Below, one piece after another: positions 1 to 28,524 of a stretch of DNA of 28,618 bases. The stretch covers positions 62,001 through 90,618 of the forward strand of contig PS015022.1 in the NCBI GenBank assembly GCA_048213135.1, written 5' to 3'. Under the pieces are notes generated by a model, which searched no databases, was not told where the DNA came from, and saw nothing but the letters and a program-made list of their open reading frames with translations. Position numbers and translations under genes: made by a program. The DNA comes from Reclinomonas americana ATCC 50394. Taxonomy: Eukaryota. Each line of letters opens with the position of its first letter. Within the stretch, counting starts at the first letter, position 1.

Positions 1-1
1 C

Positions 2-306: not shown

Positions 307-2271
307 TCATTCTTCATGCAACCCAAGTCGTACACGGTGATCGAATTCGTCACTCGGCAGCTGATCTCCGCGCGACTCATCGGCTCCGATGAGCGGCGTG
401 CGATCGTGTAATGCGAGTGGTGCTGGTGGTGACGGCGATGCTGCTGCTGCTGCTGGTGTGCCATTGCGAGACCGACTCTGTGCCATGCCCATCTCCAGCA
501 CCTCAATGTCGCCGAGCAGCGGTCGATTGAAGTCCTTGCGTCCCTCTCGCAGGTTGCGCTCAACCTTGTGCTCGGGCGCCAGTCGCGGTTTGTAATCTAC
601 GTGGACAAACGCTCGCTCCACGTCGTTCATCGCCTGTGGCGGGTGGTGGGGTCAGACTGTGCAAGCTGCGCACAAGTGGTGGTTCACGGTGTACCTCAAT
701 CCGATGCTGGACGAGCAGTGCAATGTCGTGCGACTCGGCCACCGTCATCTCGCCTGCAACGAGACGGGTGAGGAACGAAAAAAAGAGTGGTCTCTCCTGA
801 GTGTGACAACCCACCAGGCAACACCAGGTCGACCTCCACGACAATCCTGCATGCATCATGTCAACAACAGCTGGTTGCAACCCTCCGGCTCATCGCCACT
901 CAACTTTTCGCCAGCAAAGTACGCCACAATGCGATCCACGGGCGACTCGTCCATGTCGGCAAACACCTCCTGTTGCTTCACCAGCTCCTCCACTTCACGC
1001 ACGAATTCTGGGTCCGCAATGTGGCCGGCGATACGCCCGAGTGCCTCGTTTGCCATGTGCAGCCACGAGAAGAGAATCTGTCACGCAGCAGTGAGAGAAT
1101 AAACACACTGGCAGCGGATGGAGAGCAGCAGTGCGCACGTAGAGCGATATGGCCAGGGCTCCGATCGGATCCACGAACCAAAGGAAGCGCACCTGTGCGC
1201 CAATTGAGGCAGTGGCGATGGCCACGCTGTTGCTGAAGACGTCGTTGCGGTGGTCGGTGGCCAGCAACAGAGCCGAGCCACTGTGCCTGCACATGAAGAG
1301 AAGCGACTGTCGTCAGTGGCGACCTGATGAAGTCGCACTGTGGGCGTCGTGGCGCAACTTGCCGAGCCGGCGACAGTACAGGAACAGAAGGAACTTGGCG
1401 GCAATGGCCGCGCCCAGGGAAATGTATGTCGCCAGGTCCATGGTGACCAGCGCCGGGTTCTTGTGATACCAGCCGTCCCACAGATCACCAACGGCCTCCT
1501 TGATGACTGCGTGGGGAGGTGTGAGCCGCGAGAGGAGAGAAGTACAAGATGCGACCGACCTTCGAGATTGACCATTGACATAATGGCGGCCTGCACGAGC
1601 GTGTCGTGAGTGTAGGAAGGGAAGGGAAGGGAAAGAGGGGAAGGGGAGGGAGAAGAGTGCGGACCGTGACCATCATCCCGAGCGTCTCGTATCGCGATCG
1701 GCCGACAGGGAATCTCTCCGAGTGGGTCACCATCTTGCGACTTGTCCAGAACACCACTGGTGTGGAGGAGTGGTGGAGGAGATAGGCGGAGAGTGGGGTC
1801 AGCAGGCTGGTGAGATGAGAGGAGACAAGGAGAGAAAGGCAAAGATTCGAACAGGCGGTGGCTGATTGATGAAGATGCAATGCAGAAACACGCACCGACT
1901 TGACTGGTGAGGTCGACAACCGAGTCGCCCAAGCTGGCCAGCACCGACACGGAGCCAGAGACGAGATACGCGAAGAGCTTGACGCCCATTAGACCAACTG
2001 TTCATGCACACGAGTGGATCAGCGCAGCGCAGGTGCGTGTGCGGAATAGATCATGGAGAAGGCGAGAGACGGAACTGTTGGTGAGCAGTGACACCAGCAC
2101 CACGCGACTCACGCGCACCGAGAGGCGTGCGTGGAACTCTTCATCGGCCTCCTTGATTGGTACATTGGCTGTGTGTGATTCTCTCGGTGGTGCAACGACG
2201 GTCAGTTCGCGGTCGGCTGCGTTGACAGGGTGACTGCTTCTGTCGACAACATTGTCGGTGCGGTCTCCCAT
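307..2271 (-). CDS. Cation diffusion facilitator (CDF) metal transporter, Mn-CDF/MTP-like; ~10 exons
   Basis: Spliced translation gives VSLLTNIGLMGVKLFAYLVSGSVSVLASLGDSVVDLTSQ (TM1-2), RFPVGRSRYETLG, LATDHRNDVFSN (TM5), WFVDPIGALAISLYILFSW, IVVEVDLVLPGEMTVAESHDIA and DVERAFVHVDY. These are hallmark motifs of Mn-CDF proteins. ATG at 2271 is inferred; TGA at 309-307; 9 GT-AG introns. Confidence 0.92.
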
Positions 2272-2396
2272 CGACCACGAGGAAGAGAAGGAGGGACAAT
2301 GCATGTCCGAATATTCGATTGGTTTTCGAGAAACAGGCGACAACTTTGTGGTTGCAGCTGCGATACCAGCATGCAGCCTCACTAGTGGACTTCTGC

Positions 2397-2413
2397 AAAA
2401 AAAAAAAAAAAAA
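2397..2413 (+). repeat. Poly(A)17 tract in the divergent intergenic region
   Basis: Direct reading of the sequence. Confidence 0.9.
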
Positions 2414-3116
2414 GGGGAAAGAGTTGAATTCGAAGTGCCGGAAGCTGGAATTCGTCATTAGCGGATTCCGAGAAATGGAAACGATCCACGCAGCTGCTGC
2501 TTGCCCCTGGTTTCCGATTGGCCCTGCTTGTTTTTTTAGTGTCCTGTTGTACCCAGTTGCATGGGCTTCGGATAATAGATGCCATTGAAGCTCGAGCTCG
2601 CTGCGGCCTCCTCGGAATCGGTGCGATTTTGCCTTCGATCAGAAAGCCATCTGCACCCGGTCATGCTTTCCGAGGTGCCGGAGTGTAGGCGGAGATCTCA
2701 TACTTTCCGACTTCACAACCCGCGGTTCCGGGTCCTGCCCTTGGCCGATTGCGCATGTCGCATGCAGCTCATCAGCGAATTCGAGTTCCAGCTTGCCAGC
2801 GAGCGATCGACACACAGCACGCAAAGCCGGCTACATGCTGTCCACAGTGACGAATACTACAGTACGTTGGCCCCCTTTCCCAAGTGCCTGGCCAGCCGCC
2901 AGCAGCGTCACAGCTTCGGATTTGGCAGTCGTCGACGTCAACTTCGAACACGTGCATCCACTCACCACACACACCTCCCACACCGCATAATACACCATCC
3001 TCAACTTCCATTTCACCTCCTGCCGTTGAAGTGTCGCTCCGTACGCCACACTTACGTCGAATCGTCGCGGGACGATCAACGCATGCCTTTTAGACATCGA
3101 CACAGACAACAACAAC

Positions 3117-6100
3117 ATGTCGACAGCCGCCGCCGCCGCCGCTGCCGCCGCTGCTGCTGGCTCGTCGCCTGCCTTTTGTGTCGTTCTCAGAGTTGCGTAC
3201 ACCACACACCTCTCTCTCTGCACACACACACACAGACACGCAATCACATGTGTATTGAGGTGTGCGCGTGCCATGGCACCACCAGCAGCACCGTTTCACC
3301 CTCTCTCTCTCTTTCTCTCTGGGACTCACACGCACCTTGTTGCGCAACAGGCCAAGGGCAAAACCCGCGGTGCTGTGGCCGTCTACCCTCCATATGACGT
3401 CACGGTGGAGAGACCCGGAGAGGAAGAGCCACTGGCGTTCCGATTTGCACGAGCTCTGCCTCCGCGAACACCACAGGTCGACTCTCCCTCTCACTCTCGC
3501 ACACACACACTCGCCACTCGTTTCCATATCTCACTGCTCGCGACACAGGATGCACTCTTTGACACGGCGGTGTGTGATTTGGTGGACGAGGCTCTCCACG
3601 GGTTTGATGTGACTGTGCTTGTCTATGGAGCAGCCAAGGTGTGTGTCTGTGTGTCTGCCTGGCGTTCCCTGCGCACTCCCTCATTGTGTGCATGCAGTCG
3701 GGCAAGTCGTTTACGGTGTTTGGCAATCTGTACGATGCCGACGACGCCGGCATTGCACCGCGCATTGTCACGCACTTGTTTAGCGTGTTGGAGGCGAGTT
3801 GGGAGATCTACGCACAGTTGTCAGTGGTGCTCTTGTGTATTGACTATAGCATGCGCTGTGTGTAGGACAAGTATGGGTCGGTGCGCCGCTCAGTCAGCGC
3901 ACCGCCACCGTACGAGGTGACGGCGTCGCTGTTGTCGATTCGCGACGAGTCTCTGGAGGACTTGTTCTTGGCGAGTGTGCCGACAGATGTGTTGCCGACG
4001 GTGGCCACCGATGCAGCGAGTGGAGCACGCACGTTGAGTCGATTGCTGTCATCGACTGATCGACAGTTGTTGTCATTGACTCACAAGTTCTGTCACAGCC
4101 GTCCTCGCAGCGCTTCTGGTGGTGGTCTGCGCGTGCGAGGCAGTGTCTCGCAGGGCTTTTATGTGGACAATCTGACGGAACGACCTGCTATCAACGCACA
4201 AGCCGCTGTGCAGTTGCGTCAGATCGCTCTCATCCCACTGCGTGTCCTCCGTCTCACTCGTCGACAGAGTGCTTGCCGAGGCGCTGCTGCGCAGTCGTGA
4301 CGGCCACCTAGTGTACACTGTGTCGGTGACACAGCGTGCGCTGGAGGCCGCCAAGAAGCCGCTCTTGTCGCGCATTCGATTGGTGGATGTGACGGGCGAT
4401 TGTCACTCGAAGGACAACAAGGATGCGTACGCTGTGACACGCGTGCTCGCCGCACTCTCGCAGCCGGGTGGAGTCCCGGTGTCGCTGGCCGCTGTTCCGT
4501 TCCGCGAGTCCAAGCTCACTTGCGTCCTCCACCAGTCGTTTGGTGGCAAGTGCAAGACGGTTTGCGCCGCCCTGTCGTCCACGTTGCGTGTGTGCCGTGC
4601 ACGTGCTCACAGACTTGGGTGACTGGCAGCGATTGATCGCCTGTGTGGACACCGAGTCGGCACAGGCCGCCGAGTCACTGCTAACGGTGCAGGTGGCCGA
4701 TCGTGCGCAGTGGATTCAGAACAAACCCGCCGTGATGTACCTGGAAGATGTGGTGGCCAGCAGCAGTGGATCGTCGTCGGCTGGACCCGAGTCGCACGCT
4801 CTGGTGGCGGAGCTGGCAGAGAAGCTGCGTGCGGAGCTCGAGTCAGAAAAGGCACGACTCGTGGAGGAGAACAAGCAGTTGCAGAGTCGCGTTATGCAGC
4901 TGGAGGAGGCAGCGTGGATGACACCCGACGCACCCGACACCTCCAACATGGAACGAGAGATTGCACAGCTGCGAGAGCAACTCGCACAGTCGGAGCAGGT
5001 GTGTAGTGGTGTCGACGCGCTTCCTTTTTGATTCCAAGAGTGCACGTCTCACGCCGTCATGTCGTCGTCGTCGTCGTGCACAGGCTCGACTTGCGTCGGA
5101 GCGTGCGCTGAAGCACGAGACGACCAATCAAGCCGTGCTGGTGGCCGCCGAGTCCGACAAGGTGATGGCGGTGACGCATTCGCTGAAAGAGGCAGAGACA
5201 CGTGCAGAGCAGGCCGCAGCCGAGACAGCCGCGTTGCGACGCCAGTTGGACACGCAGGCGGCTGACCGCACTCGCATGGATGGCCAGAAGAGGGAGCAGT
5301 TGCAGGTCGAGAGCGATCTGGCTGAGGCTCGTCAGAGCATTGTGAAACTGCAGCAGGAGAATGGTGCGTGCATCTGTGTGCGCCCCAAGCATGCCCTGCG
5401 TGCCAATGCCCTGACACCATTTGTGTACTTGTAGCACGCATCGAAACCGAGCTGGCCACGGTCAAGTTCAAGGCCATGCGTTCCGAGTCTGCGCTGGCCG
5501 AGGCGGCTGCACAGACACGCTCGCTGGAGAGTGAGAACGAGAAGCTGAAGAAGCTGGCAGAGCAACTGAAGGCGCGCGTGGATGAGTCGGAACGGAATGC
5601 GGAGGAGGCATTCGCCGCTGCGATGCGTTTGCCCGGGCTGGAGGCGGATCTGGCCGCGGAGCGCGCCGCTGTGCAAGACCTCAAGGCACAGGTGCATTCT
5701 GAGCAGGAGCTGCGAAAGGCGGCCGAGGTGGAGACGCAGGTTGGTGTGATCCCCCATTGCGGAATCGTCAGCTCTTTCGCCCCCTTCTCTCTGCTCAACG
5801 CACCCCTGTCGCACCGCAGAAACTGACCTCGGCCTCTGACCACAATCGACCGCTGCTCGATCAACTCAACGCGGACATCGCACGTGAGCGGGCGTCGGTG
5901 AAGCAGTTGACCACCGAGTTGCAGACGGAGAGGAATGCTCTCGAGGAGGCCTGGGCGCAGCTGTACGCTGCCGAGGCTGAAGTCAAGACGCTGCGTGATC
6001 AGGTGCAGGAGCTGGTCGACGCCAAGGTGGAGCTGGCCAACGAGAAGCAGCGCTACGCTGAGCTGCATCGCGCTCTGGATGAGGAACGAGCAGCGCACAA

Positions 6101-8547
6101 GGGCACCACCTCGCAGACCACTGCACGCAGTCAGCAGCTGTTTGACGACAACCAACGAGTTGCGTTGCTGCTGTCTCTTTTCTTTGATTGAGCGCACATG
6201 CACTCACGCCCTTCCTGTCCTTTTCGCTTGCGTCGCACAGTTGCAACACCAGGTGGAGGCGGCGGAGAGGACAGTCACGGAGGCACAGCGAGAGGCCGAG
6301 ATGCACCGCACGTCGGCGACGCAGCTCGAGCGGGAACTTGGAGTCGTGCGTCGCTCGGCTGAGCAAGCGAGTGGCGAGCTGAAGGCGGCACAGGCACACA
6401 TTGCGCAGTTGGAGGCGGAGGTCAGCAGCGCTGATGCACGCACCAAGGATCTGGAAACGCGCTTGTCGTCGCATGCCAGCAGCAAGGACGAGGTTGCTGG
6501 CGAGCTGGCTCGTGTGCAGGCGGAACTTGCCGAGGCACGGCGCGTCAACAAGGAGACCTCCGCCAAGGCCGGCAGCGCCGATGTGCTCAGCAGGCAAATC
6601 ACGGAGCTGGAGGCGCAAGTCGCGTCGCTGCACAGTCGTTTGGCCACGCAGGAGAGCGACTTGATTAGCTCGCGTACCGAGTTGTCGGAGGCGCAGCGCA
6701 AGGCTCGTGCCGCTGACGTGCAGGCTGCGCGAGTGCCTGAACTGGAGGCACAAATCACTGCACTGCAGGCTCGCGTACCGCCTCCGTCGCCCGGTGGTGG
6801 TCAGTCGGAGAGCTCTCGTGTGGCCGCACTCAAGGCTGAGCTGGAGGACGAGATCACGGAGCGACAGAATGTGGAGCAGGAGCTGGCGGCGGCGCGCGAC
6901 GAGATTGACGAGTTGCGAGAGCAGCTGGCCAGCGAGAGTGCCACACGACTGCCGCCGCGCCAGAGCACAGGCGACAGTGGTGATGGCGAGGCTGAAGAGC
7001 TTCGCATGCGAGTGGAGGAGCTGCAGGCCGACGTGGGTGAATTGCAGCGCATCAATGAGGAGCAGCAGGCACTCATGCAGCAGCTGACGGAGGAGCGCGA
7101 TCAGCTGGGCGAGGATCTCGAGTTCTTCAAGGACAAGAACGAGGAGCTCAAGTTGCAAACATCGACGGCCGAGAAGCGCAGCAAGCGACTGGAGGAGCAC
7201 TTGTCGTCGGCACTCAACCGTGTCACCGACTTGGAGAGTGCTGCACTGGCGCACGAGGCGCAGAAGAAGCAGGTGGCGTCGCTGGCGGAGGAGTTGCAGA
7301 CGGCACAGACGCGTATTCGACGTTGCGCGCATGTGTGTGTCGATGCGTGTTGCGCTGCGTATCTCACTGTTGTTCTTGTGGGGTGCAGATTTGGAGAGCA
7401 CAGCACGCGATCTGGACCAGGCGAACGCGGAAATGGCAGAGGAGCTCGGCAAGCTGCGAGTGGAGAAGAGACGGCATGCCGACCAGGTGCACCACGACGG
7501 CTCTGGCGCAGCGACTGCCGCCGGTGCCAACAAGGACGAGGTGGTGACACTGCGTCGCGATCTGGCGGTGCTGCGTGAGAGCCACACGGCAGTGCACGAA
7601 AAGTACGCGGCGCTCAAGAGCCAGTCGCAACAGCTGCAGGAGCGACACGACGCCCTGCAGGCGCAGTGTGCAGAGCTGCAGAGCAAGCTGGACGAGGCGA
7701 TGGCACGAGTGGCCGAGTTGGAGCAGCAAGTGGGTGACATGTCGCAAGGACGCACGGTGACCGAGGCGGCGTCGGAGGCCGAGAAGCGCACGCTGGCGCA
7801 ACGATGTGCCGACTTTGACCGGTTAGTGTCGGTGCAGCGCGAGACCATTCAGCGTCTGGAGGAGAACCACAAGAAGCGCGAGGAGGAGCTCAAGGCCTCT
7901 GTCGACGACTTGCGCCGCGACTGCGACTTTGCCAAGGAGGAGGCGCGAGTGGCCAACATGCGGTGCGAGGAACGAAGTTGCGGCGACAGCAGCAGATGGG
8001 CGAGATTGATGTTGGCGACTTGTGTGTGTGTGTGTGCTGACACTCTCTGTGTGCAGTTGTGCAGCTGCGCGACGTGACGGACAGATACCAGTTGATGCAG
8101 GAGCAAATTGCCGCCATGAAGTCCGCCTTTATCGAACAGGGCCAGGTGCTCCGTGCGCAGAAGCGGCACTTGCAGTCGCACATTAGCAAGCAGGAGCGCG
8201 TGAACCAGCTGCTCGAGGGCATGGGCAACAGCACCGTGAACCGCGTGCTGAGTCCGGAACGTGAGCGACCGCTGTCGGCACGGCCGAGCAGCACGCATCA
8301 CATGCTGGTCAATTCGGGAAGGCACTCGCCAAAACCAGCGCCGTCCTCCTCCTCGTCTTCATCGACCACAGCCAGCGGTGCCGTCACTGCCCGATCGCGC
8401 TCACGCTCACCGAACCCGTCCAGCTCGGCAGCCACCTCGGCCCGCTCCTCGGCGTCGTCGGCATCCGTCGCCTCATCCACAAGGCGAACGATCGGTGCCG
8501 GCAGCTCGACCGTGACACGAACCGTCACGTCGGCCCGCCGCAAGTAG
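3117..8547 (+). CDS. Divergent kinesin-like protein: N-terminal motor-like domain, long coiled coil, Ser/Arg-rich tail; ~14 exons
   Basis: Spliced motifs GFDVTVLVYGAAK|SGKSFTVFG (P-loop), GIAPR, GFYVDNLTE, IRLVDVTG, VPFRESKLTCVLHQSFGGKCKT|RLIACV and ESLLTVQVADRAQWIQNKP. These are followed by E/Q/A/L-rich heptad sequence over ~4790-8220 and TAG at 8545-8547. Confidence 0.88.
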
Positions 8548-8753
8548 GAATGCTGGAGGGGGGAATGAGAAACAACACCCTGAATGAATCGCGCATCACA
8601 ATGTTTTTTTGTGTTTGTGTTTTTAATTTGCAGCAGCGTGACGGGTTGATGGCGGCTGGGTGATGAGGGGGCAGAGCGTGTGGAACGGAAGGTCCCCTCA
8701 CGACACACTTTTCAAATCGTCCCATGGGAGAGTGAAAGGCAAGGCAACGAGGA

Positions 8754-9392
8754 TTACTCCAGGTCGTCAATCGTCACTTCCACCTCGACGCCCGGCTCGA
8801 TCGAGATCGACGTCTGTTCCACGCAAGCAAATAAGCCACAAGCGAGACACGTCTCCGCGAGCACGACAAACAACACGCAACAATCTTGCGGACAACGTCG
8901 GGGACCGAGTACAGGCGGATGACGCGCTTGTGGATCTTCATCTCGAAGCGATCCCACGAGTTGGTACCGTTACCGCAAGGGCTCTTACGGGTGGTGATCG
9001 ACAGGTTCTTGGTGGGAATGCGGATCGGGCTGCATGAACACACACGAATGAGCATCATGACACCATGAACGGCTGAGATCTCTCTTTGTCAACTCACCCC
9101 TTGACCTGCAGCTGCTGGTCCTTGGCGCGGGTGATGAGCTCCGAGCACACTGCACATGGGAAAACAGTCAGTCTTCTCTCTCTCTCTCTGGTTTCCTGCC
9201 ATGCCCTCAACACGCACCCTTCTCCAGCGCGCGCACAATGCGCGACGTCAGAGTGATGGTGATCTTGTGGACCTGCAGAAGCACACAATCATCAGTGACT
9301 GACTGGAGAGTGTGGGGAGACAAGAGTGAGAGAGGAGACAGCACCTTCGCGGCCGGGATATCCTCAGTGACCTTCTTCGGGGGAACCGCCAT
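8754..9392 (-). CDS. RPS20: 40S ribosomal protein S20 (uS10); 5 coding exons
   Basis: MAVPPKK...|[104 protein letters not shown], which matches the eukaryotic RPS20 pattern closely. Confidence 0.97.
8814..8881 (-). other. RPS20 intron with +1-shifted donor (ATT|GTTGCGT...CAG|ACG)
   Basis: Junction fixed by conserved RPS20 sequence [13 protein letters not shown]. Confidence 0.88.
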
Positions 9393-9801: not shown

Positions 9802-11804
9802 ATGTTGTCGACTGTTGCGTGCTCACCAGTGACGCGTGTGTACATGTGCATGCATTCATGCGCGTGTTATGTGTGCGGAAGAATTGAGCGCGAGCGAGTG
9901 AGTGCTGACATGTCGCGCTTGTGTTTCTCTCAGGTGTTGCGGCGCATGGTCGGCGCCCCCTCCATGACTGGTGCGCCTTGCTTGCTCTCGCACTCTGTGT
10001 GCATGTCTGTCTGCTCACTTCTGTGTGTGTGCGCGCAGGTTTCATCAGGTTTTTTGCTTCTCTCTTGTGTGCGCACTGTAACCCATGCATGACACTGTCT
10101 CTCTCTGCGTGCGTGATAGTCGCCCGGCTCCGTTTGTGATGGCACAGCGTGTCGCGTTGACTCGCGTCTTCTCCACGGGAAAGGGTGCGTCTCCCAAGCC
10201 ACACTCTGGTCTCTTTCAGCGCTCATGTCGATGATGTATGCAGAGCTCAACATTGTCGTGCCTTCCATGGGAGACTCGATCTCCGAGGGCACTATTGTCG
10301 AGTGGCTGCGCAGTTGCGTGAGTCATGTACGCACAGAGACAGGCACAGGAGGACACAACACACACACACACACACACACATACTCGTACACGCACGCACC
10401 CTTGCAAACACACACACACGCCACACCTATGCACATGGAGCGGTCGTTCTGAGTGAGCATGCAGAGCCCGGCGATTCCATTGCCGAGGACGAGGTGCTGG
10501 TGCAGCTCGAGACTGACAAGGTGGCGCGAGCTCGTCCTCTTTCTCCATCGTTCGTGCCGTCTCTCACTGCGTGTGCGTGTGAGTGAAGATCACGGTGGAC
10601 GTGCGTGCGCCTCAGGGTGGCACCGTTGTCAAGACGCTGGCGGCCAAGAATGATACCGTGTCGGTCGGACAGGTGATTGCGGTGTTGCAGACGGGTGCGG
10701 CTGGTGCTGGTGCGTCGATTCGTGTGTGTACAGTGTGTGGTTGAGAGAGAGAGAGAGAGAGAGAGATTGACACCGTACACAGCCAAGCCTGCTCCTGCTG
10801 CTGCTGCCGCCGCCCCGGCTGCCAAGCCTGCTGCTCCCGCTGCTGCTGCGGCGGCTCCGGCGGCTGCCCCTGCGAAGCCTGCTGCCCCGAAGCCGGCTCC
10901 GGCGCCGACTGCTGCTGCGCCGGCTGCCAAGTCGACTGACGAGCTGCAGGAGCGTCGTGTGCCCATGTCCAAGATGCGCAAGCGCATTGCCGAGCGCCTG
11001 AAGGAGGCTCAGAACACTTATGCAATGCTGACGACGTTTAACGAGGTGCGTGTGTCTCTCTCAACACACACACTCTCTCTCGTTTCCGTTTTCCCCACTC
11101 ACTCTCCGCACGAAAAAAAGGTGGACATGAGTGCGGTGATGCAGCTGCGCAACGAATTCAAGGACGTGTTTGAGAAGCGCCACGGTGTGAAGCTCGGCTT
11201 CATGTCGGCCTTTGTGTACGCCGCGTGCATTGCGCTGCAGCGAGTGCCGGCGGTGAATGCGGTGATTGACGGCGACGATGTGGTGTACCGCGACTACTGC
11301 GACGTCAGCGTGGCAGTGGCGACTCCAAAGGGCCTCGTGGTCCCCGTGATCCGCAACGCCGAGAAGCTGTCGTTTGCCGGCATCGAGAAGGAGATTGGCA
11401 GACTGGGCGAGCTCGCTCGCGTCGGCGGTCTGACGATTCAGGATGTTGCGTGCACGCGCGTGTGTGTGTGTGCGCCCTGCATTCCCTCCCTCCTCCTCCT
11501 CATCTCCTTCATCGACTAAATGCAGATGCAAGGCGGCACCTTCTCCATCTCCAACGGTGGCGTGTTCGGCTCTCTGATGGGCACACCCATCATCAACCCG
11601 CCACAGTCGGCGATTCTCGGCATGCACGCCATCAAGGACCGCGCAGTGGTGGACGAGAAGACCAAGCAGGTGGTGGCCCGACCCATGATGTACATTGCGC
11701 TCACCTACGACCACCGATTGGTCGACGGCCGCGAAGCCGTCACCTTCCTCAAGACCATCAAGGAGATCGTGGAGGACCCGCGCCGCATCGTGCTCGACAT
11801 CTAA
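9802..11804 (+). CDS. DLST: Dihydrolipoamide succinyltransferase (E2 of 2-oxoglutarate dehydrogenase), mitochondrial precursor; ~10 exons
   Basis: Arg-rich presequence (MLST|VLRRMVG...RVFST), lipoyl domain [42 protein letters not shown] and an Ala/Pro/Lys linker. The catalytic domain reads [23 protein letters not shown]...[32 protein letters not shown]...[21 protein letters not shown] at 11802-11804. Confidence 0.96.
10313..10464 (+). other. DLST intron with +1-shifted donor (A|GTTGCGT...CAG|AG), containing (CA)n
   Basis: A phase-1 junction restores EWLRKPGD of the lipoyl domain; the nearby GTGAGT at 10318 gives the wrong frame. Confidence 0.85.
11445..11525 (+). other. DLST intron with +1-shifted donor (GAT|GTTGCGT...CAG|ATG)
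   Basis: Restores [15 protein letters not shown]; in-frame TAA inside the intron. Confidence 0.88.
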
Positions 11805-14900: not shown

Positions 14901-15919
14901 TGTGTCTTTTGTGATTGACGACGCTCTCCGACATCAAGTGTCGTCGATGCTGCACGTCACTGGTGAAATGTCGGCGTGGACTGACGGAACCGACAGGTGT
15001 GGTCCTAGTGCGTGCTGAGGGAGGTTCAGAGTGTTGCCGCTGAACAAAGTGGTTGTATACCAGATCACCATCTCCACCGGGAAAGATGACGGCATCGACG
15101 AGGATGGGGCGGCGGAGTAGAAGTAGCAGTGGCCATGCGCGAGGTGAGCCATGTTTTGGATAACGCATTCTTTCAAGATGATACTCACTCTTCTCCACGT
15201 CCCCGCACAGCTCGATCAGCGGCGGAGCGACGAAGACAGCAGACCGAGTACGAGTGGAACACAGAGCAGGACAAGCAGCTGCGGCGCAAATAGTTGTGTG
15301 CTGATGTGGTGCTGAGATTTTCATTGGCGCACACCAGTTGGTCTTACCGCGCTCCGCGCAGTACCGACGTGTTGCCGGTGTTTGCTCGACCACTGATTCT
15401 TGGACGACCGTCAAGTGCTCTGCTGGCACCACCGGACGCGCGCATGTTTCGTAGCCGCTGTCGCATCCGTCCTCGTTGTTGCCACTTGCTCACCCCTCTC
15501 CCCCCCGCACACAGCCTGGGACGAGTTGCCGATCGACCGCAGAGTGCTGCGCATGTGCCGTCTCGCTCGCGGTCACCGTCCCTCAATGCGCGTTCACGAT
15601 CGGTCTCTGCCCTCGGTCATCGACCTCCACTAGGTACCGCCCGACGCAGACAACCACCACCCTCTCTGTGCACGCCACTCACGTGTATTCTTTGCGTGCA
15701 GGCATGACAGGTCTCGCAAGCAGCGGAGACATGAGACCACCATCGCGACCGGCGAGTCCGGCCGATGCATGGGAGGCAACAGTAATGTCGCCATCGCCAG
15801 CAGCGACACCCGCAGCTGCAGCCGGTGGTGGTGGCGGGCGATCGATCTCGCCCGACGTGGTGCGACCGGCCTCGTCCAGCATGCGACCACATCGCGACGC
15901 ATCCGTGCGGTGGGAGTAG
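11920..15919 (+). CDS. Large multi-exon hypothetical protein (~20 exons) with helical N-terminus and Ser/Pro/Arg-rich low-complexity segments
   Basis: Open segments can be joined in consistent phase through ~19 GT-AG introns from ATG 11920 to TAG 15917-15919. I recognise no family motif, so several junctions are uncertain. Confidence 0.6.
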
Positions 15920-16083: not shown

Positions 16084-16913
16084 TTACTGGCTCACAACTG
16101 CAGATGCAACAAGGATGAGAGCAGTTCGTTGACAACGGCGACAACAGCGACAGCCAACGCAACTCGACAGGTAGATGCCCCACACGAAGGCCACCATGTT
16201 CGAGAACAAGACGCGGAAACGCACCGGCACAAAGCTGCACACACAAGTGAACAACCAAGACTTGAAACTGCATGCAGTGCACGAGCGCACGAACCGGAAG
16301 TTGATGAGCTGCGCCACAGGCCACAGCTTCCACCCGGCAAAGATGGTGGGGATCACTGTGGTGGCCAGCGTGCGCGGGATATCACCCGGTCGCCCATCCG
16401 CCGCCGCCATGAAGCTGAAGAACGCCGAGGTCATAAACAGCGCAAACAAGGTCTGATCGACCGCCAGCTTGATCATCATCTGACGAAAGAAGAGGCAGCA
16501 CGAGTGAGCACAGACATGCAACTAACACTCTCTCTCTCTCTCTCTTACCTTTCCACTGCCTACATAACGCTCGAGTAGCTTGTGCCAGTGATGCACCAGC
16601 ACACCAGCAATGGCTCCCCACGTGCCAAACCTCAGAGTCTTGCCAAAGGCAAACGACCACACACGACCAGCACGCAGTGCAGCACCGCGCTCAAAGCCCA
16701 CTTGCGCAATCACATTGGAGAGCACAGACAGAGTCGCGGATGTGAGAGACTGCACACACGCGAGTGAGTGTGTGTGTGTGAATGAGAGCCAGTGTGTGTG
16801 TGTGTGTCAACTGATACCTTTGTGAGGATGGGCTTGTGCTCCAGAGACTTTTCGTAAAAGCCGAGGATGCGTCGCCACAGTGGCACCGATCGTTCTTCCT
16901 TGCTCAACGCCAT
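16084..16913 (-). CDS. Mpv17/PMP22 family membrane protein; ~5 exons
   Basis: YEKSLEHKPILTK|SLTSATLSVLSNVIAQ, HHWHKLLER, KLAVDQTLFA, GWKLWPVAQLINFR|FVPVRFRVLFSNMVAFVWGIYLS are the family signatures. Confidence 0.93.
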
Positions 16914-17037: not shown

Positions 17038-19305
17038 TCAGACGCGATCAGCTGCAGCGCCACCACTGGTGAAGTCGGCGGAGGCTGTCGGTGCGTGGCT
17101 GCGCGTGGCCACAGGAGCAGCACTGGCGGCGGTCATTGGGGAGGTGCGAGTGGCGACGGCGACGCCACTGGGTGAGGCTCGTGAGCGTGGAGAGGCGGCT
17201 GCGTTGAGCTGGTTCGTGAGACGTTCGGCTTCGCGCTTGCAGCGATCGCCGAGCTGCGCCTTGAAGCGCTGCTGCTCGCTCTGCCAGAAGCGGTCGTCGC
17301 GGAAAACGTGCGGCTCGCACAGGTAGCGGCGGCGCACGTCGACGAGGCACGGTACGACCATCAGCTTGGCCAGCAGGCGGCTCAGTGACCTGCGATTGTG
17401 AACGTGAGGACAATTCTTGTCGACAATACTGGTGGGTCCGGAGACGGTACGCAACGCCCACAGGTTTCGCCACTCGACGAGCTCGCTGACCTTGTCGTCG
17501 TCCATGTCCAACGACGGCGGCAGCACGGAGCCGTCAAAGAGGCGACCGTCCTCCCACTCAATCTCAGTCCGGGTCTCCGACGCCTGCCACGGATCAAAGA
17601 GCGCCACGAAGAGGTCGCCCTTGATGCCAGCCGCTCCGCGTTGCATGAACCAGTGCGGCGAGGAGACAAACGAGCGCAACACCTGCACGAGCACCTTCTT
17701 GCGTGCCGGAGTGAGTCGGTCGTCCTGATAGTCGTCGGCGTTGCCGCCGGCTTCCTGCGCTCGAGAGGAGAAGCGTGAGAAGGAAATAGGAGGCGAGGGA
17801 ACGAGAAGAGGTGTTCTGACAGCACCAGCATCTGCTCGATGCGGCCGACGAGGGCGTCGCAGGTGCCGGTGATCATGTTGTGCGCGTCGGCCACTGATGG
17901 CGAGTGTGTGAGACTGCAACTTTCCCCAAAAAGAATAAGAGAGTGAAGCAGTGCCACGAAACAAATGCCGTCGATGAGCCGCTTTGCGTTCTTGCGCTCC
18001 GCCGACAGCATCGGGTCCTGCTCGAGATCGCGGTTGGAGCTGGACATTGACCCGCGGCGCAGCTGCGTGCCCTCCAGCGTGGTGAGGTCGTGCAACAGCT
18101 GCGGCACCGTCTGCTTGGCGGGGATGAAGCGCTCGACCACCGCCGCGAAGCCGGCCTTCAGACGCGTCAGCTGGTCCACTTGCGGCGTCCGGGAGAACGT
18201 GCCGTACTCGACCAGCGCACCAGCGTAGCGGCGGATAATGACCTCGCGGTAAAAGTACTGCAGGCAGGGAGGAAAGTAATATCAAACAAACACAAGGGTA
18301 ATGCAGTGCAACAGCAACCGACCTCCATGAACAGAGTGAACTCACTGTGCGAGCAGGAGGCAAACATGAGAGGCTACACGTGGAGGATTAGGGCGTTGCA
18401 ACAGAGACGCACTCGCGCTCCATCTTCTTGTTGCTGTCCAGATCAAACTGCGTCATGATGCTGTTCACATGGACGGCGTCAATGTGGTCCACCAGCGCCT
18501 TGGTGCTGGCCTCGGTGATCGGCAACGGCGCCGCATCGCGCATGTGATCTACGTACGAACTTAAACGAGCAGCTCAGCAGCTCAGCAGCAGCACACACAA
18601 CGCGCACCCGTAAGCCGCTCCCGGAAGTGCTGGATGAACTCGTCCGGCTCAATCGTTCCCTGCGCATGATCGCTGTTAGTGGCCGAGGGTGGAAAAGGCT
18701 GAAGGCAGAAAAAGCGAACACGCGCCGACTTGTCTGTATCAATCTGTGCAAAGAAGTCGTCGAGATCCTGCTGCCAGCCGGGCGTACGGAAGCGCAGCTC
18801 CACAATCGAGACTAGTGTAGCCCACGCAACATAAAAACACAAGCACATGGGATCCGAGGAAAGACCGAAACGCAACTGCACCACTCGACATACGCGCTCG
18901 CCGCATGCTGCAACTGCACATCCAGCAGGTGCCGCTGGAAGAACGGCAGAGGCACGAACGTCGGAACTGTTGTACACCACGTGAGCAAACAGACACGTGC
19001 GTTGCTGTGAGAGAGACGCAACTGTGTCCATCTCTCTTGACCTCCAACAGCTTATAATCCGGCCACGACTCCACGGGCAGTCGCTGCACACGACGCGGAG
19101 CAGCTGCACTCATGGCCACACCCACAGGCGACAGCACTCCACTGCCTCCACCTCCACTGCCACTCTCCTGAGAGTGCGAGGTGCGCCGATGACGAGTGGC
19201 CGAGAGAGGCGCCTCATAGTCGACATACGCCGCGTCCAGTGCCGTCAGAGGCGCAACACCCGCGCTGAATGGCGACTGCCACTCAGACGTGCAACAGTTG
19301 CCCAT
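17038..19305 (-). CDS. EF-hand calcium-binding protein with N-terminal MGNCC dual-acylation motif; ~9 exons
   Basis: Starts MGNCCTSE. Splicing reconstitutes a canonical EF loop FAQIDTDKS|GTIEPDEF and a second, degenerate loop FDLDSNKKMERD|EF. The C-terminal half is unrecognised. TGA at 17040-17038. Confidence 0.75.
18660..18725 (-). other. GC-AG intron (TCG|GCGCGT...CAG|GGA)
   Basis: Only this donor yields the 12-residue EF loop DTDKSGTIEPDE. Confidence 0.75.
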
Positions 19306-19399
19306 CTCTGAGACAGACTGACACAAGCGACGACGGATTTCGCGAGCAACTAAGTGTGCTTTTAGTTGTTGGTTAGGCGCGCGCCTTTTTGCCCGCCAG

Positions 19400-20546
19400 A
19401 TGGGCGGTTGCTGTAGTCACGACAGCAAGCCGCCTGCGCACGGAGAGGCGCCTATAGGTGCGCAAGGTGTGCAGGAGGGGCCCACGCGGTTGACACCGAG
19501 CTCCGGGACGCCGAGTGGAGCTGGTCTTGTGCAGCCGGTGCCTACGCGGCCCTCGCCGACAATGAAGAAGCACGAGTGGCAGGAGGATGATGGCGATGCA
19601 GAGGTTAAGAGTCACTCTCAGTCGCTTGTTGCGCAGAGTGATTACGCGTGTGATCCCGCGCAAGTGGTGCGTTGTTCATTTGCCTGTCGCTCACGCCTCA
19701 CTCGCTAACAACAACCGTGGTGTTAGACGCTGGTGCAGTCGGAGAACAGTTGCGCGCGCTGCTCTCTGTCTTCTCACACCTGTCTTGCTCACCACTGTTG
19801 TATGTAGTCTATGTGCGGTACTTGGCGCGTAAGGTGCCGACGGGTCTGCTGGCCAGCGAGGCCGAGCAGCAGGCGTTGGTGGATGTCACAGATTTCCTTC
19901 GTTGCGCCATTCTCTTGTTGTTGCATTTTCGTTGTGGGTTTGTCATGGTGTTGGTGTGTGCAGGTCGTTTGGTGCAGAAGCATCTGAAGAACGGCAAGGA
20001 GGCGGGGCGTATCATCTTCCGCGAGTCGCAAAAGGCGCTGGATGACTCGAGTGCGTCTTGTGTGCCTTGTGTGCTGCTGCTGTTGTCTTCGCACATAATG
20101 TATGCGTGTGCAGCGGATCCGCTGGTTGACTTGCTGCGCTCGCTGGGCGAGTCGGAGCGTTTGGCTGCGCGTCCGGAGAACAAGCGTGCGTCTGTGCGCA
20201 GAGTGAGCGTCTTGGCGGATGTGTTGCGCTTATTGTGTTTTCGTGCAGTGCCGCTCATCTCGTTTGGCGTGTTCTACCTGCTGTACAACGAGGCGTTTGA
20301 CAAGATCTTTGCGGCGTACGAGCAGTACGTCAGTGAGCACCCCGGCACCACCTTCAATCGCACTGTGTGCACGTACATCAAGAGCGTGCTGCAGCTGCGC
20401 ACCGAGATGAAGTTCAAGCCGAGCGTGCACACGGATCTGAGCACTGTGCTGAGCACGTACGCTCGCCAGGGCGAATTCCGAGCGCCGGCATATGTCGGCC
20501 TTTCGCTCCGCACCGTGGAGTTGCTGCGTGTTGCCGGTATGTATTG

Positions 20547-20579
<33 letters not shown>

Positions 20580-21400: not shown

Positions 21401-21511
21401 TACTGCAACCAATGCAACGGGATCTCCAGTGTGTGTGCAATGATGCGAATGCAATTAAAAAAAACAGAGTGCGTTACTGTACATTTTTCCACCCCCCCTC
21501 CACTACGTGTG

Positions 21512-23371
21512 TCACACGGGATCGCTGGATCTCCGCCGAGCCTCTGGCATCAAGCGCTCACGTCGCAACACATCTCCGAGTTCCCGCGCGCGCAGCGCCA
21601 CCATCGGGTCCTCGTGTCTTGCCAGCGAACGCGACATGTCAACTGCTGTCGCCAGCAGTGGTGGCGGGCAGTAGGTGCGCACCACATCGCCATCGGCCAG
21701 CACGTTGCGAAGGAGCCAGAGAGAAGCCGACAAGAGAACGAACCTTGGTTGCCTTCTCGCTGGTAATAGTGGTGGAGGTGGTGGTGGTGGTGGATTCGAA
21801 GGTAGTGCTGGTGGTGGTGGTGGTGGCATCGAGACGGGCGGTGGTATGGGCGGAGGAGGCGGAGGTGGCCCAGAGGATGATTCTGAGGCGCTGGTAGTTG
21901 TCGTGGTTGTGGTTGTGGTTGTGGTGGTCTCCGTGGACCTGCCAGGCGACTGGCAAAACTCGACCATGCGGTCGACAAAGGACGACTGCAGCAGAATCAT
22001 TTGGTTCACCGCGTTGCCCTCTGTCGCAGACAAAGGCACACTGCTATGAGTTCACAGCAGTATTTCATCTTCATCACCAACGAATTTCAACAGACCAACA
22101 AAGGCCGCCAGCGCAGTGACGGCAGCTCGCCGGTGGCTGAGCTTCGTGTCCGCCAGTCGGATCAGAGTCTCGCCAATGTTGCTCTCGCGTAGCGCGTTCT
22201 GGTAGAGGCAAGAGATGGCCCGATCCTTGGCTGTACAATCGGCCAGAATCGCCATGTTGCCGACCAGTCGGCAGGCGGCTAGCTGCGCGCACACACCACA
22301 ACGAGATCAGTGCACGGCCGCACATGCATCACTGTGCAGGATTTCGTGCACGCAACAGATACGTGCGTGTCGGCTTCGTAGAGCAGCAGCGGCACGATCA
22401 GCTCCTGGAATGCCGCCTGCAGCATCGCATCGACGACTTTCACCACTCCGCGCAACAGCGTCGTCAGGCTGTCGGCCAGCGACATGGCCACTTCGCGATG
22501 GTCCGTCGCTCGAGCGTGCTCATGCAGCAGCTCGGCGACCGTCTCCAGTCTGCGTGCTTCCGCACCTAAGTGGCCTGCTTCTTGATGACGCAGATAGACA
22601 CAGACACACACACACCTCTCCAGTGCCACCGCTGCGTTGGCTGCATGCCCGATTAGCAGCGTCTCTTCGTCCACCGACTGGTTCAGCCGCTCAGTGGCCT
22701 CGACGCAATAGCGGGTGACTTGCGCATCGACGGCCGACGGCAACTTGAACGCCATATCGACAAACTATGATGCCTTGGAGTGAGTCGGCGATCCCAGCAG
22801 CGTCTGCGCAAGGATCGCACACCTGGTGGAACTCAATAAACTGCTCCTGAAAGTACTCCATCTTCTCGCGTGCGTGGCCCGCCGTGCACCAGACGGCGAA
22901 TCGCTGCCACGAAGAGCGTTCCCGATCCGCCGACTTGCTCAGCCAGTCAAACATGGCCTGGCCGAGCACCTTGCGACAATCGCCTGGCGCCAGCACCAAA
23001 CAGACCGCACATCAGTAGATCAACGGAGCAAGCAGCACACCTGCACCACATGCAATAAGCGGACCTGTGATGGTAAAGTTGCGCAGACGATCAATCGCCG
23101 GCAGCAGCAGTGAGACATCCCTTCGTTGCACCACTGTGGTCTCCACCAGCACATGGATCAATGAGGTCCGCAAAGAAGGCTCGCTGTGGTGCGAGGCATG
23201 CTGCACGGCCGATCGATGCGCCAGACTGTGCATGTGTGAGAAGAGGAAGATTCGACTTCTTTGCAGTGTGTGAGGTCACCTGTCATCGTCGGCGCTGTCG
23301 TCGTAGTCATCATCATCGTCATCGTCGTCGCGGTTGCCACTGGTGGGCGCACGAGTGGCGCTCGCCGACAT
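21512..23371 (-). CDS. Hypothetical ARM/HEAT-like helical protein with acidic N-terminus and Thr/Pro-rich insert; ~7 exons
   Basis: MSASATRAPTSGNRDDDDDDDYDD start. Segments LAACRLVGNMA, RRAAVTALAAF and SASLWLLRNVL resemble ARM helix-3 patterns. Poly-Pro at ~21765-21875. The fold assignment is inference. Confidence 0.6.
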
Positions 23372-23565
23372 TCCCGACAAGAGTTGTCCTTTGGCGATCA
23401 CAATGACGAAGGGAAGGAACGTCGACGGCCTCAAGCCAAGTCAAGGCGGGCCATAGAGCTTTCTCTATGGAGCCACTGCTGCGCTGCGTCTATTTCCTCT
23501 CACAGACTCCAGCAGGCAGAGGCGATTTGCATAAGAAGATAAGCCCATGTACTGATGGCTCAACA

Positions 23566-24360: not shown

Positions 24361-24539
24361 TGTCGAGAACAAAAGTTCTGTTGGAAGTGAAGTTGTCCTG
24401 TGCGGACTTTCTTGTGTTTGCCGCGCTTCTCCGTCGTTGGAGCATTGACTGTGTGTCGACGCGTGTGCTCATCTACACGCGGGAGTGCATTCAACCGCAG
24501 CGAGCAAGAGATACGTGAGGCAGTGCAAGTCGGGTGGAA

Positions 24540-27500
24540 ATGGCCCGCTCAAGTACGTTTTTTGTGCACACTTTGACCGCACACTTTCACACACGCGCGC
24601 GCACATTCCCTCACGCCACAGTGGACGCAGATGTGCAGCGGAGAGTTGTGACAGCAGTGATTGTGCTGTCACTAATGATGATGATGATGATGATGTTGGC
24701 GGCGGCTCCAGGAGTAATGGGACTGCGACATCGAACCTCGCGCAGTCATCATCAGAAACAGCAACAGGAACAGCAGCATGTGTCAATGGACCAAATGGGC
24801 GCTGTGTCAATGGCAGGCGACACTGGTGATGACGGCATGAGTTGTGTTTGCGTCAGCCGAAGCCCAGATAGTCTCCCGCCACGTGGCGATCTCACTTGTT
24901 GTCTTGTCGCGCACGCAGTGGATGATGTGTTTGATGTGATTGTGGAGCAGCGTGAGGGCGATGGAAAGTTTGTGGTGATCATCGATGGTTCGTCTCTCTC
25001 TCTGTCCGCGCGAGTGTGTGTGCCACGTGGATTTGCTGAGGTGTTGTGACGTGGTGCAGGCGAGGAGCTGCAGTTGCCGGAGAGCTTCCAGCCGCAGGTG
25101 GATCCGGAGACGGGCATGATTATGCTGTCGGAGACGGAGATGCAGCAGGTGGAGACGCTGGTGGATACGATGCAGCGGGCGTTGAGAAATCTGGAGCGGG
25201 CGATTGCGGATAATGAGGTGTTGCATGACGGTGGTGGTGATTCGGCGCCGCCACCCACCACCACGAGTGAGCTTCCGGCTGGTCAGCCAGCGGCAGAGGG
25301 AGCGACGGTGCAGGCTGGTGATGAGCCGGGGAAGGAGGGCGAGGGCGAGGAGCCAAAGGAGGAGGAAATCGAGGTGCCGAAGGATCTGTACGGGCAGGCG
25401 GAGGATGCGCGGTCGAATCGCGAGTTTGAAAAGTTGAGTCGCCCTTTGCATGCGTCGGTGTACTTGACTCGGTGGCTGATGATGTGTTGCGGCAGGGCGG
25501 TTGAGCTGTTGCAGCGTGCGGTGGAGACGGAGAACTCGACCGACGCGCAGCTGCGTCTCGGCCTTATGTACGAGGTACGGTCGCATGGCGATGTGCGACA
25601 GGGGTCGATTGCATTCCTCACTTGCGTGATGTGCAGTACGGCGAGGGAGTGCAGCAGAATTGGACGCTGGCGGCCGACCATTTCGCCAAGGCCACCAACA
25701 AGGGCAACCCCAAGGCGATGCACGAACTCGGCTTCTGCTACATCAACGGTCTCGGTGTGCCGCGCAATCTGGGAGTGGTGAGTGCTCTCCTTCGTTGCTC
25801 ATGCGAGTCTTTCTCTCTCTCTCTCTCTCTCTGTCGCTCTCTCGCTCACCGAGCATCTATTGTAGGGCCTGTTGCATTGGCATTTCGCCGCACGAGCAAA
25901 GAACGTGCCGGCATCGCTGGCCCTCGGCCACCGCTACATGTATGGCATCAATGTGGAAAAGTCGTGCGAGAGTGCGGCACCGTACTATCGTGTGGCTGCC
26001 GAGCAATGTTGCGAGCAGAGTGTTTTTCTATGTGCGTGTCGGTGATGCTGACCCGAGGGATCGTGATGTGTGCAGCGGTGTTGCAGCACATGGCTCAGGA
26101 GAGCCACCCGTACGACCTGATTGATCTGATGAACCCGGTGGCCATTCAGGAGAAGGAGCGCGAGTCGGATCTCATTGAGCTGTACGAGTACTCGGCGGCA
26201 AAGGGCGACACCAAGGCACAGGTCTGCTTTTCCGTGCATCTGAACCCCTTCTCATTGTCGAGTTCCGGCTGCCTGACACGCGGCTTCGTCACAGTTGTAC
26301 CTGGGTTACGCCAACCTGCTCGGCTGGAACGGTCTGCCGCAGAACCGGCCCGCAGCCGTGGAGTACTTTGAACAGGCTGCAGCTGGCGGCGATCCTGGAG
26401 GTCACGCCGCTCTCGGCCAGGTGTTTGTGCAGGGCTTGGGCGTGAAGCAGGACAACAAGACTGCGCACGAACATTTCAAGAAGGCCGCCGATGCTGTGCG
26501 TCACGCCATTGTGCTTTCGTATGTGATTGTCTGCCTCAGCTCTGACATGCTTGTATTCGCCACTGCAGGGCCACGCTGGCGCGCAAAATGGACTGGGTAC
26601 GTGACTCGTCGTCGTCGAGGACTGCACGGTGAATGCATGCTCATTGTTCGTTGCTCTGCAGGCTACCTGTACTTGAATGGTCTCGGCGTGCCAAAGGATC
26701 CGGAGCGTGCTCTGCGCTACTTCCGCGCCGCTGCCGAACAGGGCAACCCCGAAGGTCAGTTCAACTGCGGCTTCATGCACCACCACGGACACGGAACGCC
26801 GGTCAACCACGCCATGGCCTTCCAGTACTACTCCAAGGCGGCGGCACAGGGACAGGATCTGGCCACCTTCCAGATGGCGGAAATGTACCTCAACGGACAG
26901 GGAGTCACGCGCAGCTGCTCACAGGCACTCAAGCACTACAAGAAGATGGCGGAGAAAGGTATCGTGTGTACACGCAGTATTGTATGTGTTGTCGAGGGGC
27001 TGTGTGTGTTCACTCGTGATGTGTGCTCTGCCAGGCACTTGGACCGATCTGATTGACGATGCCTATGCGTCGTACATGGACGGTGACTACACCATGGCGC
27101 TGCTGGACTATTTGCACGGCGCCGAGCGCGGGTACGAGGTGGCGCAGAGCAACGTGGCTTTCATGTTGGAGCGCCGTCTGGGAGTCGAGGCCATCTTTGG
27201 TCCCGACCCCATGGCCACGGAGACTGCCGTGGCGGCGCTGGCTGCCGAGCGGAAACAACTGGAGGATGCCAATAAGGCCGCCAAGGACAGTGGCGAGCAA
27301 CAGGCACAGCAGCAGCAGCAGCAGCAGCAGCAGCAAGTGGTCACGCAACAGCAGGCCACGGAGCTCAAATTGGCGCAGCAGGCCGCAGCTGACCGTGAGT
27401 TCGCCATTGACCGCCTCGCGCTGCAGTGGTACTCGCGTGCTGCCATGCAGGGACATGTGAAGGCGAACTTGAAGGTGTGTATATGCCGTTTACTCCCGCA

Positions 27501-28465: not shown

Positions 28466-28467
<2 letters not shown>

Positions 28468-28519: not shown

Positions 28520-28524
<5 letters not shown>

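Follow-up and report, generated by a model that had tools for sequence, protein, structure and literature searches.

Splice-site models and gene finders assume that the donor motif stands in a single register to the point of cleavage. Human 5' splice sites recognized in a shifted register were reportedly described by Roca and Krainer in 2009, and bulge registers by Roca et al. in 2012. In PMC4856993, shifted and bulged registers of U1 on human sites are proved by suppressor U1, with ACA/GUCAAGUAU as a shifted example (a slash marks the exon-intron boundary throughout), and the validated non-canonical registers, taken together, account for 1.5% of the 201,541 human sites; out-of-register recognition is thus documented only for a small fraction of them. 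The bulge registers between 5' splice sites and U1, among them +2/+3 and +4/+5, are summarized in PMC4856993 and PMC9311317. Here, the donor sites of a stretch of 28,618 nucleotides (nt) from Reclinomonas americana ATCC 50394 (contig PS015022.1, positions 62,001 to 90,618; hereafter the window) were analyzed. It is eukaryotic nuclear DNA with a GC content of about 0.59, carrying 11 genes over both strands and numerous short introns. About one third of its donors are rather likely to form a second, common U2-type GT-AG class, in which the whole donor signal lies one base off the cleavage site.

Genes were modelled with our own dynamic-programming gene finder, and each gene was then corrected by eye. 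Donor scoring used intron-side bases only and the exon base at -1 never entered, while the donor model did contain a shifted component. Signal-free gene finding was dropped, as genes were merged and spurious introns chosen. Manual review judged the finder introns at 322, 2862, 8308, 8544, and 21959 false, added the in-frame first intron of the S20 gene and small exons in gene E, and shortened over-long introns in genes J and H. The outcome was 11 complete ATG-to-stop models with no internal stops and 95 introns, 94 of them GT-AG and one GC-AG. Region 3817 to 3897 of gene B is ambiguous, and its t/GTCAGTGG at 3820 was counted as a normal donor without G at -1.

Pfam searches with single exons identified a kinesin motor (gene B), ribosomal S10/S20 (C), 2-oxoacid dehydrogenase acyltransferase (D), Mpv17/PMP22 (F), lysine methyltransferase Methyltransf_16 (J), and Sel1 repeats (K). 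Gene A, judged by the conserved motifs of its homologues, is a cation-efflux (CDF) protein, and gene D is dihydrolipoamide succinyltransferase (DLST), the closest relatives of the DLST exon being only about 70% identical. Protein searches with exons 6241-7320 (among longer proteins) and 27037-27474 matched no annotated protein, and an Rfam search of the window gave 0 matches. Two metagenome loci (L001 and L002) are relatives with about 30% overall identity and GC contents of 0.49 and 0.42, too distant for orthologous introns.

Donor classes were set by intron bases alone. Shifted donors have T at +3, G at +6, and not G at +5; normal donors have G at +5; other donors fit neither definition, and the GC-AG donor was counted apart. 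The exon base at -1 was A in 16, C in 7, T in 8, and G in none of the 31 shifted donors, compared to G in 43, A in 4, C in 2, and T in 2 of the 51 normal donors, G in 11 and A in 1 of the 12 other donors, and G in the single GC-AG donor. G at -1 was found in 0 of 31 shifted and 55 of 64 remaining donors (Fisher exact test; rows 0, 31 and 55, 9; P = 2.8e-17). The association was also present in the subset of 72 introns whose retention shifts the frame or brings a stop (rows 0, 20 and 46, 6; P = 7e-13) and in the homology-checked genes A, C, and D only (rows 0, 6 and 12, 1; P = 2.6e-4). In the gene models of this window, the shifted class is strictly tied to exons that do not end in G.

An earlier note made from the letters of the window had listed 28 shifted donors between 904 and 26014 with A (16), T (7), or C (5) and never G at -1, and about 8 of some 66 other donors without G. 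Re-derivation gave the 31 donors above, the first and last of them at 904 (minus strand) and 26008-26014, and 9 of 64 remaining donors without G; the contingency test of donor class against the -1 base, which the note had suggested, was carried out on gene-model introns with the result given. The note had also placed GTT-starting donors after G mostly in the normal register. Among 38 such donors, the 31 following a non-G base are all shifted and the 7 following G, including 5740, 14321, 24988, and 20697, are in the normal register or otherwise unshifted. The dependence on context had been held to speak against random sequencing error, and such error is indeed an implausible source of the extra T, since this base is absent behind all 55 exons that end in G. 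In gene H, the first intron was taken as g/GTGCGTTG at 19667 (60 nt) over a frame-compatible 135-nt alternative, gag/GTTAAGAGT at 19604; use of the latter would create the single case of a shifted-looking donor preceded by G.

Shifted donors were present in 10 of the 11 genes, the eleventh having one intron only. Their heptamers are GTTGCGT (15), GTTGCGC (5), GTTGAGT (3), GTTGTGT (3), GTTTCGT (2), and three others occurring once. All 31 introns are GT-AG and their removal leaves complete open reading frames (ORFs) in 11 of 11 models; the median length is 69 nt compared to 68 nt for the other introns, and at acceptor position -3, 28 have C and 3 have T, as in other introns. The 5' consensus of U12-type introns, spliced by the minor spliceosome, is RTATCCTT, and no heptamer among the 31 resembles it. 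The shifted donors, followed by the unshifted donors starting with GTT, are listed below; an intron is called obligatory when a transcript that kept it would lose the frame or run into a stop.

898 to 905, minus strand: shifted donor a/GTTGAGT, gene A (cation-efflux), phase 2; obligatory 58-nt intron, gap-free against 18 homologues
1352 to 1359, minus strand: shifted donor a/GTTGCGC, gene A; obligatory, gap-free junction
2069 to 2076, minus strand: shifted donor a/GTTCCGT, gene A; obligatory, no same-phase GT within 30 nt, gap-free, residue I in a hydrophobic column
3191 to 3198, plus strand: shifted donor a/GTTGCGT, gene B (kinesin-like); 159-nt intron in frame without stop, not obligatory
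4032 to 4039, plus strand: shifted donor c/GTTGAGT, gene B; in frame, no stop, model only
4212 to 4219, plus strand: shifted donor a/GTTGCGT, gene B; obligatory, no same-phase alternative
6158 to 6165, plus strand: shifted donor a/GTTGCGT, gene B; obligatory, no same-phase alternative
7321 to 7328, plus strand: shifted donor c/GTTGCGC, gene B; obligatory
7976 to 7983, plus strand: shifted donor a/GTTGCGG, gene B; obligatory, no same-phase alternative
8875 to 8882, minus strand: shifted donor t/GTTGCGT, gene C (ribosomal protein uS10/S20); obligatory, uS10 alignment
9813 to 9820, plus strand: shifted donor t/GTTGCGT, 5'-terminal region of gene D; low confidence, in the presequence or 5' untranslated part of the model
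10312 to 10319, plus strand: shifted donor a/GTTGCGT, gene D; obligatory, gap-free in the lipoyl domain against 20 homologues
11444 to 11451, plus strand: shifted donor t/GTTGCGT, gene D; obligatory, gap-free, next exon starting with M, the residue of 19 of 20 homologues
12264 to 12271, plus strand: shifted donor c/GTTGCGT, gene E; in frame, no stop
12599 to 12606, plus strand: shifted donor t/GTTGCGT, gene E; obligatory
12835 to 12842, plus strand: shifted donor a/GTTGCGC, gene E; obligatory, no alternative
13659 to 13666, plus strand: shifted donor c/GTTGCGT, gene E; obligatory
15292 to 15299, plus strand: shifted donor a/GTTGTGT, low-complexity C-terminal part of gene E; an in-frame TAG ends with the donor G; obligatory, no alternative
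15445 to 15452, plus strand: shifted donor t/GTTTCGT, gene E; in frame, no stop
16157 to 16164, minus strand: shifted donor a/GTTGCGT, gene F (Mpv17/PMP22 by Pfam); in frame, no stop
17449 to 17456, minus strand: shifted donor c/GTTGCGT, gene G; in frame, no stop
17956 to 17963, minus strand: shifted donor t/GTTTCGT, gene G; in frame, no stop
18595 to 18602, minus strand: shifted donor c/GTTGTGT, gene G; ambiguous with same-phase g/GTGCGCG six bases upstream
18870 to 18877, minus strand: shifted donor a/GTTGCGT, gene G; obligatory, no alternative
19016 to 19023, minus strand: shifted donor a/GTTGCGT, gene G; obligatory, no alternative
19748 to 19755, plus strand: shifted donor a/GTTGCGC, gene H; obligatory, no alternative
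19900 to 19907, plus strand: shifted donor c/GTTGCGC, gene H; in frame, no stop
22350 to 22357, minus strand: shifted donor t/GTTGCGT, gene I; obligatory
24840 to 24847, plus strand: shifted donor a/GTTGTGT, gene K (Sel1-repeat protein); in frame, no stop
25432 to 25439, plus strand: shifted donor a/GTTGAGT, gene K; in frame, no stop
26007 to 26014, plus strand: shifted donor t/GTTGCGA, gene K; obligatory, same-phase t/GTGCGTG 24 nt downstream
5739 to 5746, plus strand: normal-register GTT donor g/GTTGGTG; likewise at 4560, 14321, 16294 (minus strand), 20697, and 24988
10049, plus strand: unshifted GTT donor g/GTTTTTT, following G

The donor signal of the shifted class was displaced by one base on both sides of the cleavage site. 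On the exon side, the -1 position of shifted donors (A 16, C 7, G 0, T 8) resembled the -2 position of all remaining donors (A 31, C 10, G 9, T 14), with A at 52% and 48%, respectively (chi-square P = 0.16), and shifted -2 resembled the remaining -3 (P = 0.81), compared to P = 1e-13 for -1 against -1 and P = 0.07 for -2 against -2. On the intron side, positions +4 to +7 of shifted donors read GCGT, equal to +3 to +6 of normal donors: G 28, C 25, and T 24 of 31 at +4, +5, and +7 compared to G 34, C 25, and T 37 of 51 at +3, +4, and +6. The downstream block was sharper in the shifted class, with G at 90%, C at 81%, and T at 77% compared to 67%, 49%, and 73%. Two features of the shifted register of Roca and Krainer were found, namely, a block displaced by +1 from the GU and the last exon bases in the -2 and -3 slots. 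The absence of G at the shifted -1 position is mainly the expected outcome of the one-base shift, because the last exon base sits in the A-preferring -2 slot and G+1 in the slot of the -1 G. A residual lack of G was left over, G at the normal -2 position being present in 9 of 64 donors (probability of 0 in 31, 0.009; Fisher P = 0.028).

In terms of eight slots, normal donors read A-G/G-U-G-C-G-U and shifted donors A/G-U-U-G-C-G-U, the same octamer with U for G in slot 3. With U in that slot, the only GU would begin one slot earlier and cleavage would follow it; the intron G+1 would take the slot filled by the exon -1 G in normal donors, and the last exon base would fall in the -2 slot, which favours A and seldom holds G. 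The displaced signal may be read by the U1 5' end in the shifted register, with cleavage fixed later at the GU, in the manner proved for rare human sites. The residual lack of G and the absence of T after G-ending exons would best be read as selection: a shifted site after G would never be the better state, because the T-less site one intronic base away is the full consensus. The earlier note had proposed that G+1 fills the place of the -1 G in the U1 duplex; the displacement on both sides agrees with that placement, and the part that found no support was the advantage in pairing with ordinary U1 described further below.

Use of the shifted junctions was supported by the reading frame and by homologues. 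The introns of 20 of the 31 shifted donors are obligatory, and 9 of these 20 donors have no other same-phase GT within 30 nt. Six shifted junctions (10313, 11445, 2075, 1358, 904, and 8881) show no gap in alignments with homologues, among them sequences with transcript-type source names (MMETSP, Trinity). Spliced DLST compared to 20 homologues had no gap at 10313 and 11445 or at the further junctions 10521 and 11046, and the CDF alignment with 18 homologues had none at 2075, 1358, and 904 or at six other junctions. Exon 4 of the S20 gene aligns (residues 1-49) with uS10 chains, ending 18 residues before their C termini, and exon 5 encodes 19 residues.

A cut one base further downstream at both intron ends (TT...N) was rejected on the junction residues, which fit the GT-AG cut. 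The GT-AG reading gives M at a gene D junction, where 19 of 20 homologues have M, and I at a gene A junction, in a column with V, I, L, F, or W in 16 of 18 homologues; the alternative cut at the latter junction would give S, which is found in 0 of 18 homologues. Donors 18601 and 26008 have good normal-type same-phase donors close by, and neither alternative would create a G-preceded shifted donor. At 26008, comparison with PDB matched the upstream exon to SEL1L to within two residues of the exon end, and the downstream exon had no match. Same-phase tandem donors 6 or 12 bases apart were seen at 14189/14201 and 10710/10722 (plus strand) and at 18607/18601 (minus strand).

Some observations would favor misplaced junctions. 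The finder with its shifted donor component gave at least one false shifted donor, and a same-phase GT lies within 30 nt of 18 of the 31 shifted donors. The false donor, at 4494, was replaced on the basis of the kinesin motif by g/GTTTGCGCC at 4560, after which the Pfam kinesin match covers exon 4269-4559 to its last residue.

Pairing was analyzed by duplex prediction (ViennaRNA) of each site from -4 to +10 with the U1 5' end AUACUUACCUG as printed in PMC4856993, which may not be that of this organism; the nearest-neighbour energies ignore pseudouridine and U1 proteins. The mean duplex energy was -7.0 kcal/mol for normal donors with G at -1, -5.85 kcal/mol for the donors fitting neither definition, -2.7 kcal/mol for normal donors without G at -1, and -1.75 kcal/mol for shifted donors, which changed to -2.79 kcal/mol when the extra T was removed in silico. 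In the minimum free energy duplex with AUACUUACCUG, G+1 of the shifted sites pairs with C9 in 8 of 31.

Several points weigh against a signal that is displaced as a whole and read by U1. Against the standard U1 5' end, no class pairs more weakly than the shifted sites in any register, and omission of the extra T strengthens the predicted duplex in 31 of 31 sites; a hypothetical GC-adapted U1 with C8 retained gives the same picture, the T being of benefit at only 3 of the 31 sites. C or T stands at -1 in 15 of the 31 shifted donors, so no A-U10 pair is added there, and after non-G exons shifted donors outnumber normal ones 31 to 9, an excess not expected from simple pairing energies. The depletion of G relative to the -2 slot is modest (P = 0.009 to 0.028), and for 11 of the 31 introns, which keep the frame and contain no stop, the models are the only basis. 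All junctions are known from sequence, gene models, and homologues, and the sample is a single window of 28.6 kb.

The duplexes also bear on the proposal of the earlier note that the extra T makes up for an exon end at which G is impossible. In its simple form, with ordinary U1 as the pairing partner, compensation was not supported: the predicted duplex gains from the T in 0 of 31 sites. The constraint on the exon end itself stood in part: 24 of 31 shifted donors are in phase 1 or 2, compared to 33 of 64 remaining donors (Fisher P = 0.025), and -1 is constrained in these phases because it is the first or second codon base, set by the amino acid. The 7 phase-0 shifted donors speak against it, since 5 of them end in codons with a synonymous form ending in G (AGA, CGA, ACT, CGA, and TCT).

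The excess of shifted over normal donors after non-G exons asks for a further factor. As a tentative proposal from modelling, the shifted class, about one third of the introns, might be read by a dedicated component, for which the likeliest candidate would be a second U1 small nuclear RNA (snRNA) with A (or G) instead of C at position 8. G+1, U+2, and U+3 would then pair with positions 9, 8, and 7 of that U1. With a hypothetical U1 carrying A at position 8, the extra T was predicted to be favourable in 30 to 31 of 31 sites, compared to 0 to 3 of 31 for any U1 keeping C8. After G, the T-less site with ordinary U1 was best (-7.0 kcal/mol), and after non-G, the GTT site with the variant U1 (-4.25 kcal/mol) outperformed the T-less site with ordinary U1 (-2.7 kcal/mol), so that in the duplex predictions the variant and the ordinary U1 together reproduce the observed rule at -1.

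Absence of any special recognition is an unlikely explanation that would accommodate the very weak predicted U1 duplexes: weak GTT sites would arise by drift behind exon ends other than G, for example by a bias towards T insertion or common ancestry of introns, and the likeness to a displaced signal would reflect coding composition. The sample is small, and unused copies of GTTG[ACT]G[TC] on both strands are also G-poor at -1 (G in 7 of 43). The intron-side block is, however, better conserved in shifted than in normal donors, suggesting selection, and the strict shifted motif following A on sense strands is used as a donor in 14 of 16 occurrences. The introns, compared by eye, share nothing beyond the donor, which argues against a repeat family, and the perfect split of the 38 GTT donors by the -1 base would be hard to obtain by drift.

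A bulged U is an improbable explanation as well. Normal U1 pairing (G+1 with C8, U with A7) would be retained, one U of +2/+3 would be bulged, and GCGU would pair as usual. Bulge registers, including +2/+3, are validated in human cells according to PMC4856993. Five other donors in the window look bulge-like, with an extra base after +3 or +4: 9344 and 17825 on the minus strand and 10521, 15634, and 26959 on the plus strand, with the forms g/GTGCTGT (twice), g/GTATCGT, g/GTACCGC, and g/GTGGCGC. One of them is the following.

9338 to 9345, minus strand: bulge-like donor g/GTGCTGT, block displaced by an extra base after +4, G at -1

Pairing of the U6 type to G+6/U+7, once U1 has left, would probably need a bulge in any case, judging from the structure of the spliceosome. 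A bulge keeps -1 opposite C9 of U1, so G at -1 and A at -2 should stay favoured, but G at -1 was found in 0 of 31 shifted donors and their exon pattern is moved by one base. The bulge-like donors are the opposite of the GTT class, with G at -1 in 5 of 5 (Fisher P = 2.7e-6 against 0 of 31), and since they keep this G, the -1 rule is specific to the GTT form. The window thus seems to hold genuine bulge-type sites that behave unlike the GTT class, for which a bulge would offer no reason why T is present three times as often as absent after non-G exons (31 compared to 9).

That wrong gene models or a spurious T in the assembly conceal true donors of the normal type is very unlikely, given that ORFs are complete in all 11 genes only with these donors, that 20 of the introns are obligatory and 9 of them lack another same-phase GT within 30 nt, that homology is gap-free at six junctions, that the donor list made by eye for the earlier note is nearly identical, and that an erroneous intronic T would not depend on the last base of the exon and yet is absent in 55 of 55 G-ending exons. 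The shifted class with its anatomy is real and probably a new form of shifted-register splice site.

Among the remaining donors, those with a weak intron side nearly all end the exon in AG (G at -1 in 12 of 13 and A at -2 in 10 of 13), and the nine unshifted donors without G at -1 mostly carry a perfect GTGCGT. This is the classical compensation between exon and intron. The GC-AG intron of gene G is a probable one, and with it removed the protein reads DTDKSGTIEPDEF, which we take to be a regular 12-residue EF-hand loop by its spacing; a cut at the GT that follows after six more bases would lengthen the loop by two residues. Further features of the window are as follows.

18660 to 18725, minus strand: probable GC-AG intron of gene G, tcg/GCGCGTGT...GCGCAG
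10581 to 10588 and 11113 to 11120, plus strand: ends of two gene D introns with AAG instead of CAG or TAG, both junctions gap-free against 20 homologues
3117 to 4630, plus strand: gene B, kinesin-like motor with divergent P-loop region YGAAKSGKS, then about 1,100 residues of coiled coil
21744 to 21959, minus strand: gene I, in-frame Thr/Pro-rich low-complexity stretch read as coding, where the finder had a 216-nt intron
19305, minus strand, and 19400, plus strand: genes G and H, divergent across a gap of about 95 nt, proteins starting with MGNCC and MGGCC, presumably resembling an N-myristoylation/palmitoylation start (MG.CC)
1 to 213, plus strand: Pro/Gly/Tyr-rich C-terminal end of another gene entering from the left edge, TGA near 213, converging on gene A
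28463 to 28618, right end of the window: long (CT)n run, then (CCGA)n and (CCGGA)n-like short repeats

If the shifted class is what it appears to be, a displaced register can grow into a mainstream way of defining 5' splice sites, and a natural set of thousands of sites would be available to separate U1 binding from the choice of the cleavage position. Gene predictors for this lineage would need a two-register donor model; our own finder mis-called several donors until corrected. If the variant U1 exists, a duplicated spliceosomal RNA would divide the intron population.

The literature search found papers on human registers and no genome rich in GTT(G)CGT or shifted donors, the original register papers and supplements being outside its reach. 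Like human shifted-register sites as described in PMC4856993, the donors of the window have a cut site at GU, an extra pyrimidine, and the consensus block one position late. As in the human example given there, the exon ends in A and not G, G+1 replaces the -1 G opposite C9 of U1, and cleavage is at the GU, whereas for about half of the donors in the window the -1 base is C or T. In comparison to the 1.5% of human sites with non-canonical registers in that source, the shifted class makes up 31 of 95 donors, and unlike the six consecutive pairs of the human example, the GCGU block pairs poorly with standard U1 in a weak predicted duplex. The human register is backed by suppressor U1; the one described here is known from sequence alone. 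With bulge registers, the window has in common one extra nucleotide between the GU and the downstream block, which five donors fit. The GTT class differs in that it never has G at -1 and its exon preferences are moved by one base.

Human variant U1 snRNAs (vU1) with altered 5' ends are reported in PMC3561869 and PMC10870369. By the same principle, an additional U1 that differs at its 5' end could recognize a donor class of its own, as suggested here by duplex predictions with hypothetical sequences only. The two classical donor classes, AG//GU and //GURAG, compensate between the exon -1 G and the strength of the intron side. The window follows this picture, as its donors with a weak intron side have an AG exon end and those lacking G at -1 have a nearly perfect intron side. 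In classical compensation, the strength of the two halves changes and the register is fixed, whereas in the shifted class the intron half is also displaced by one base.

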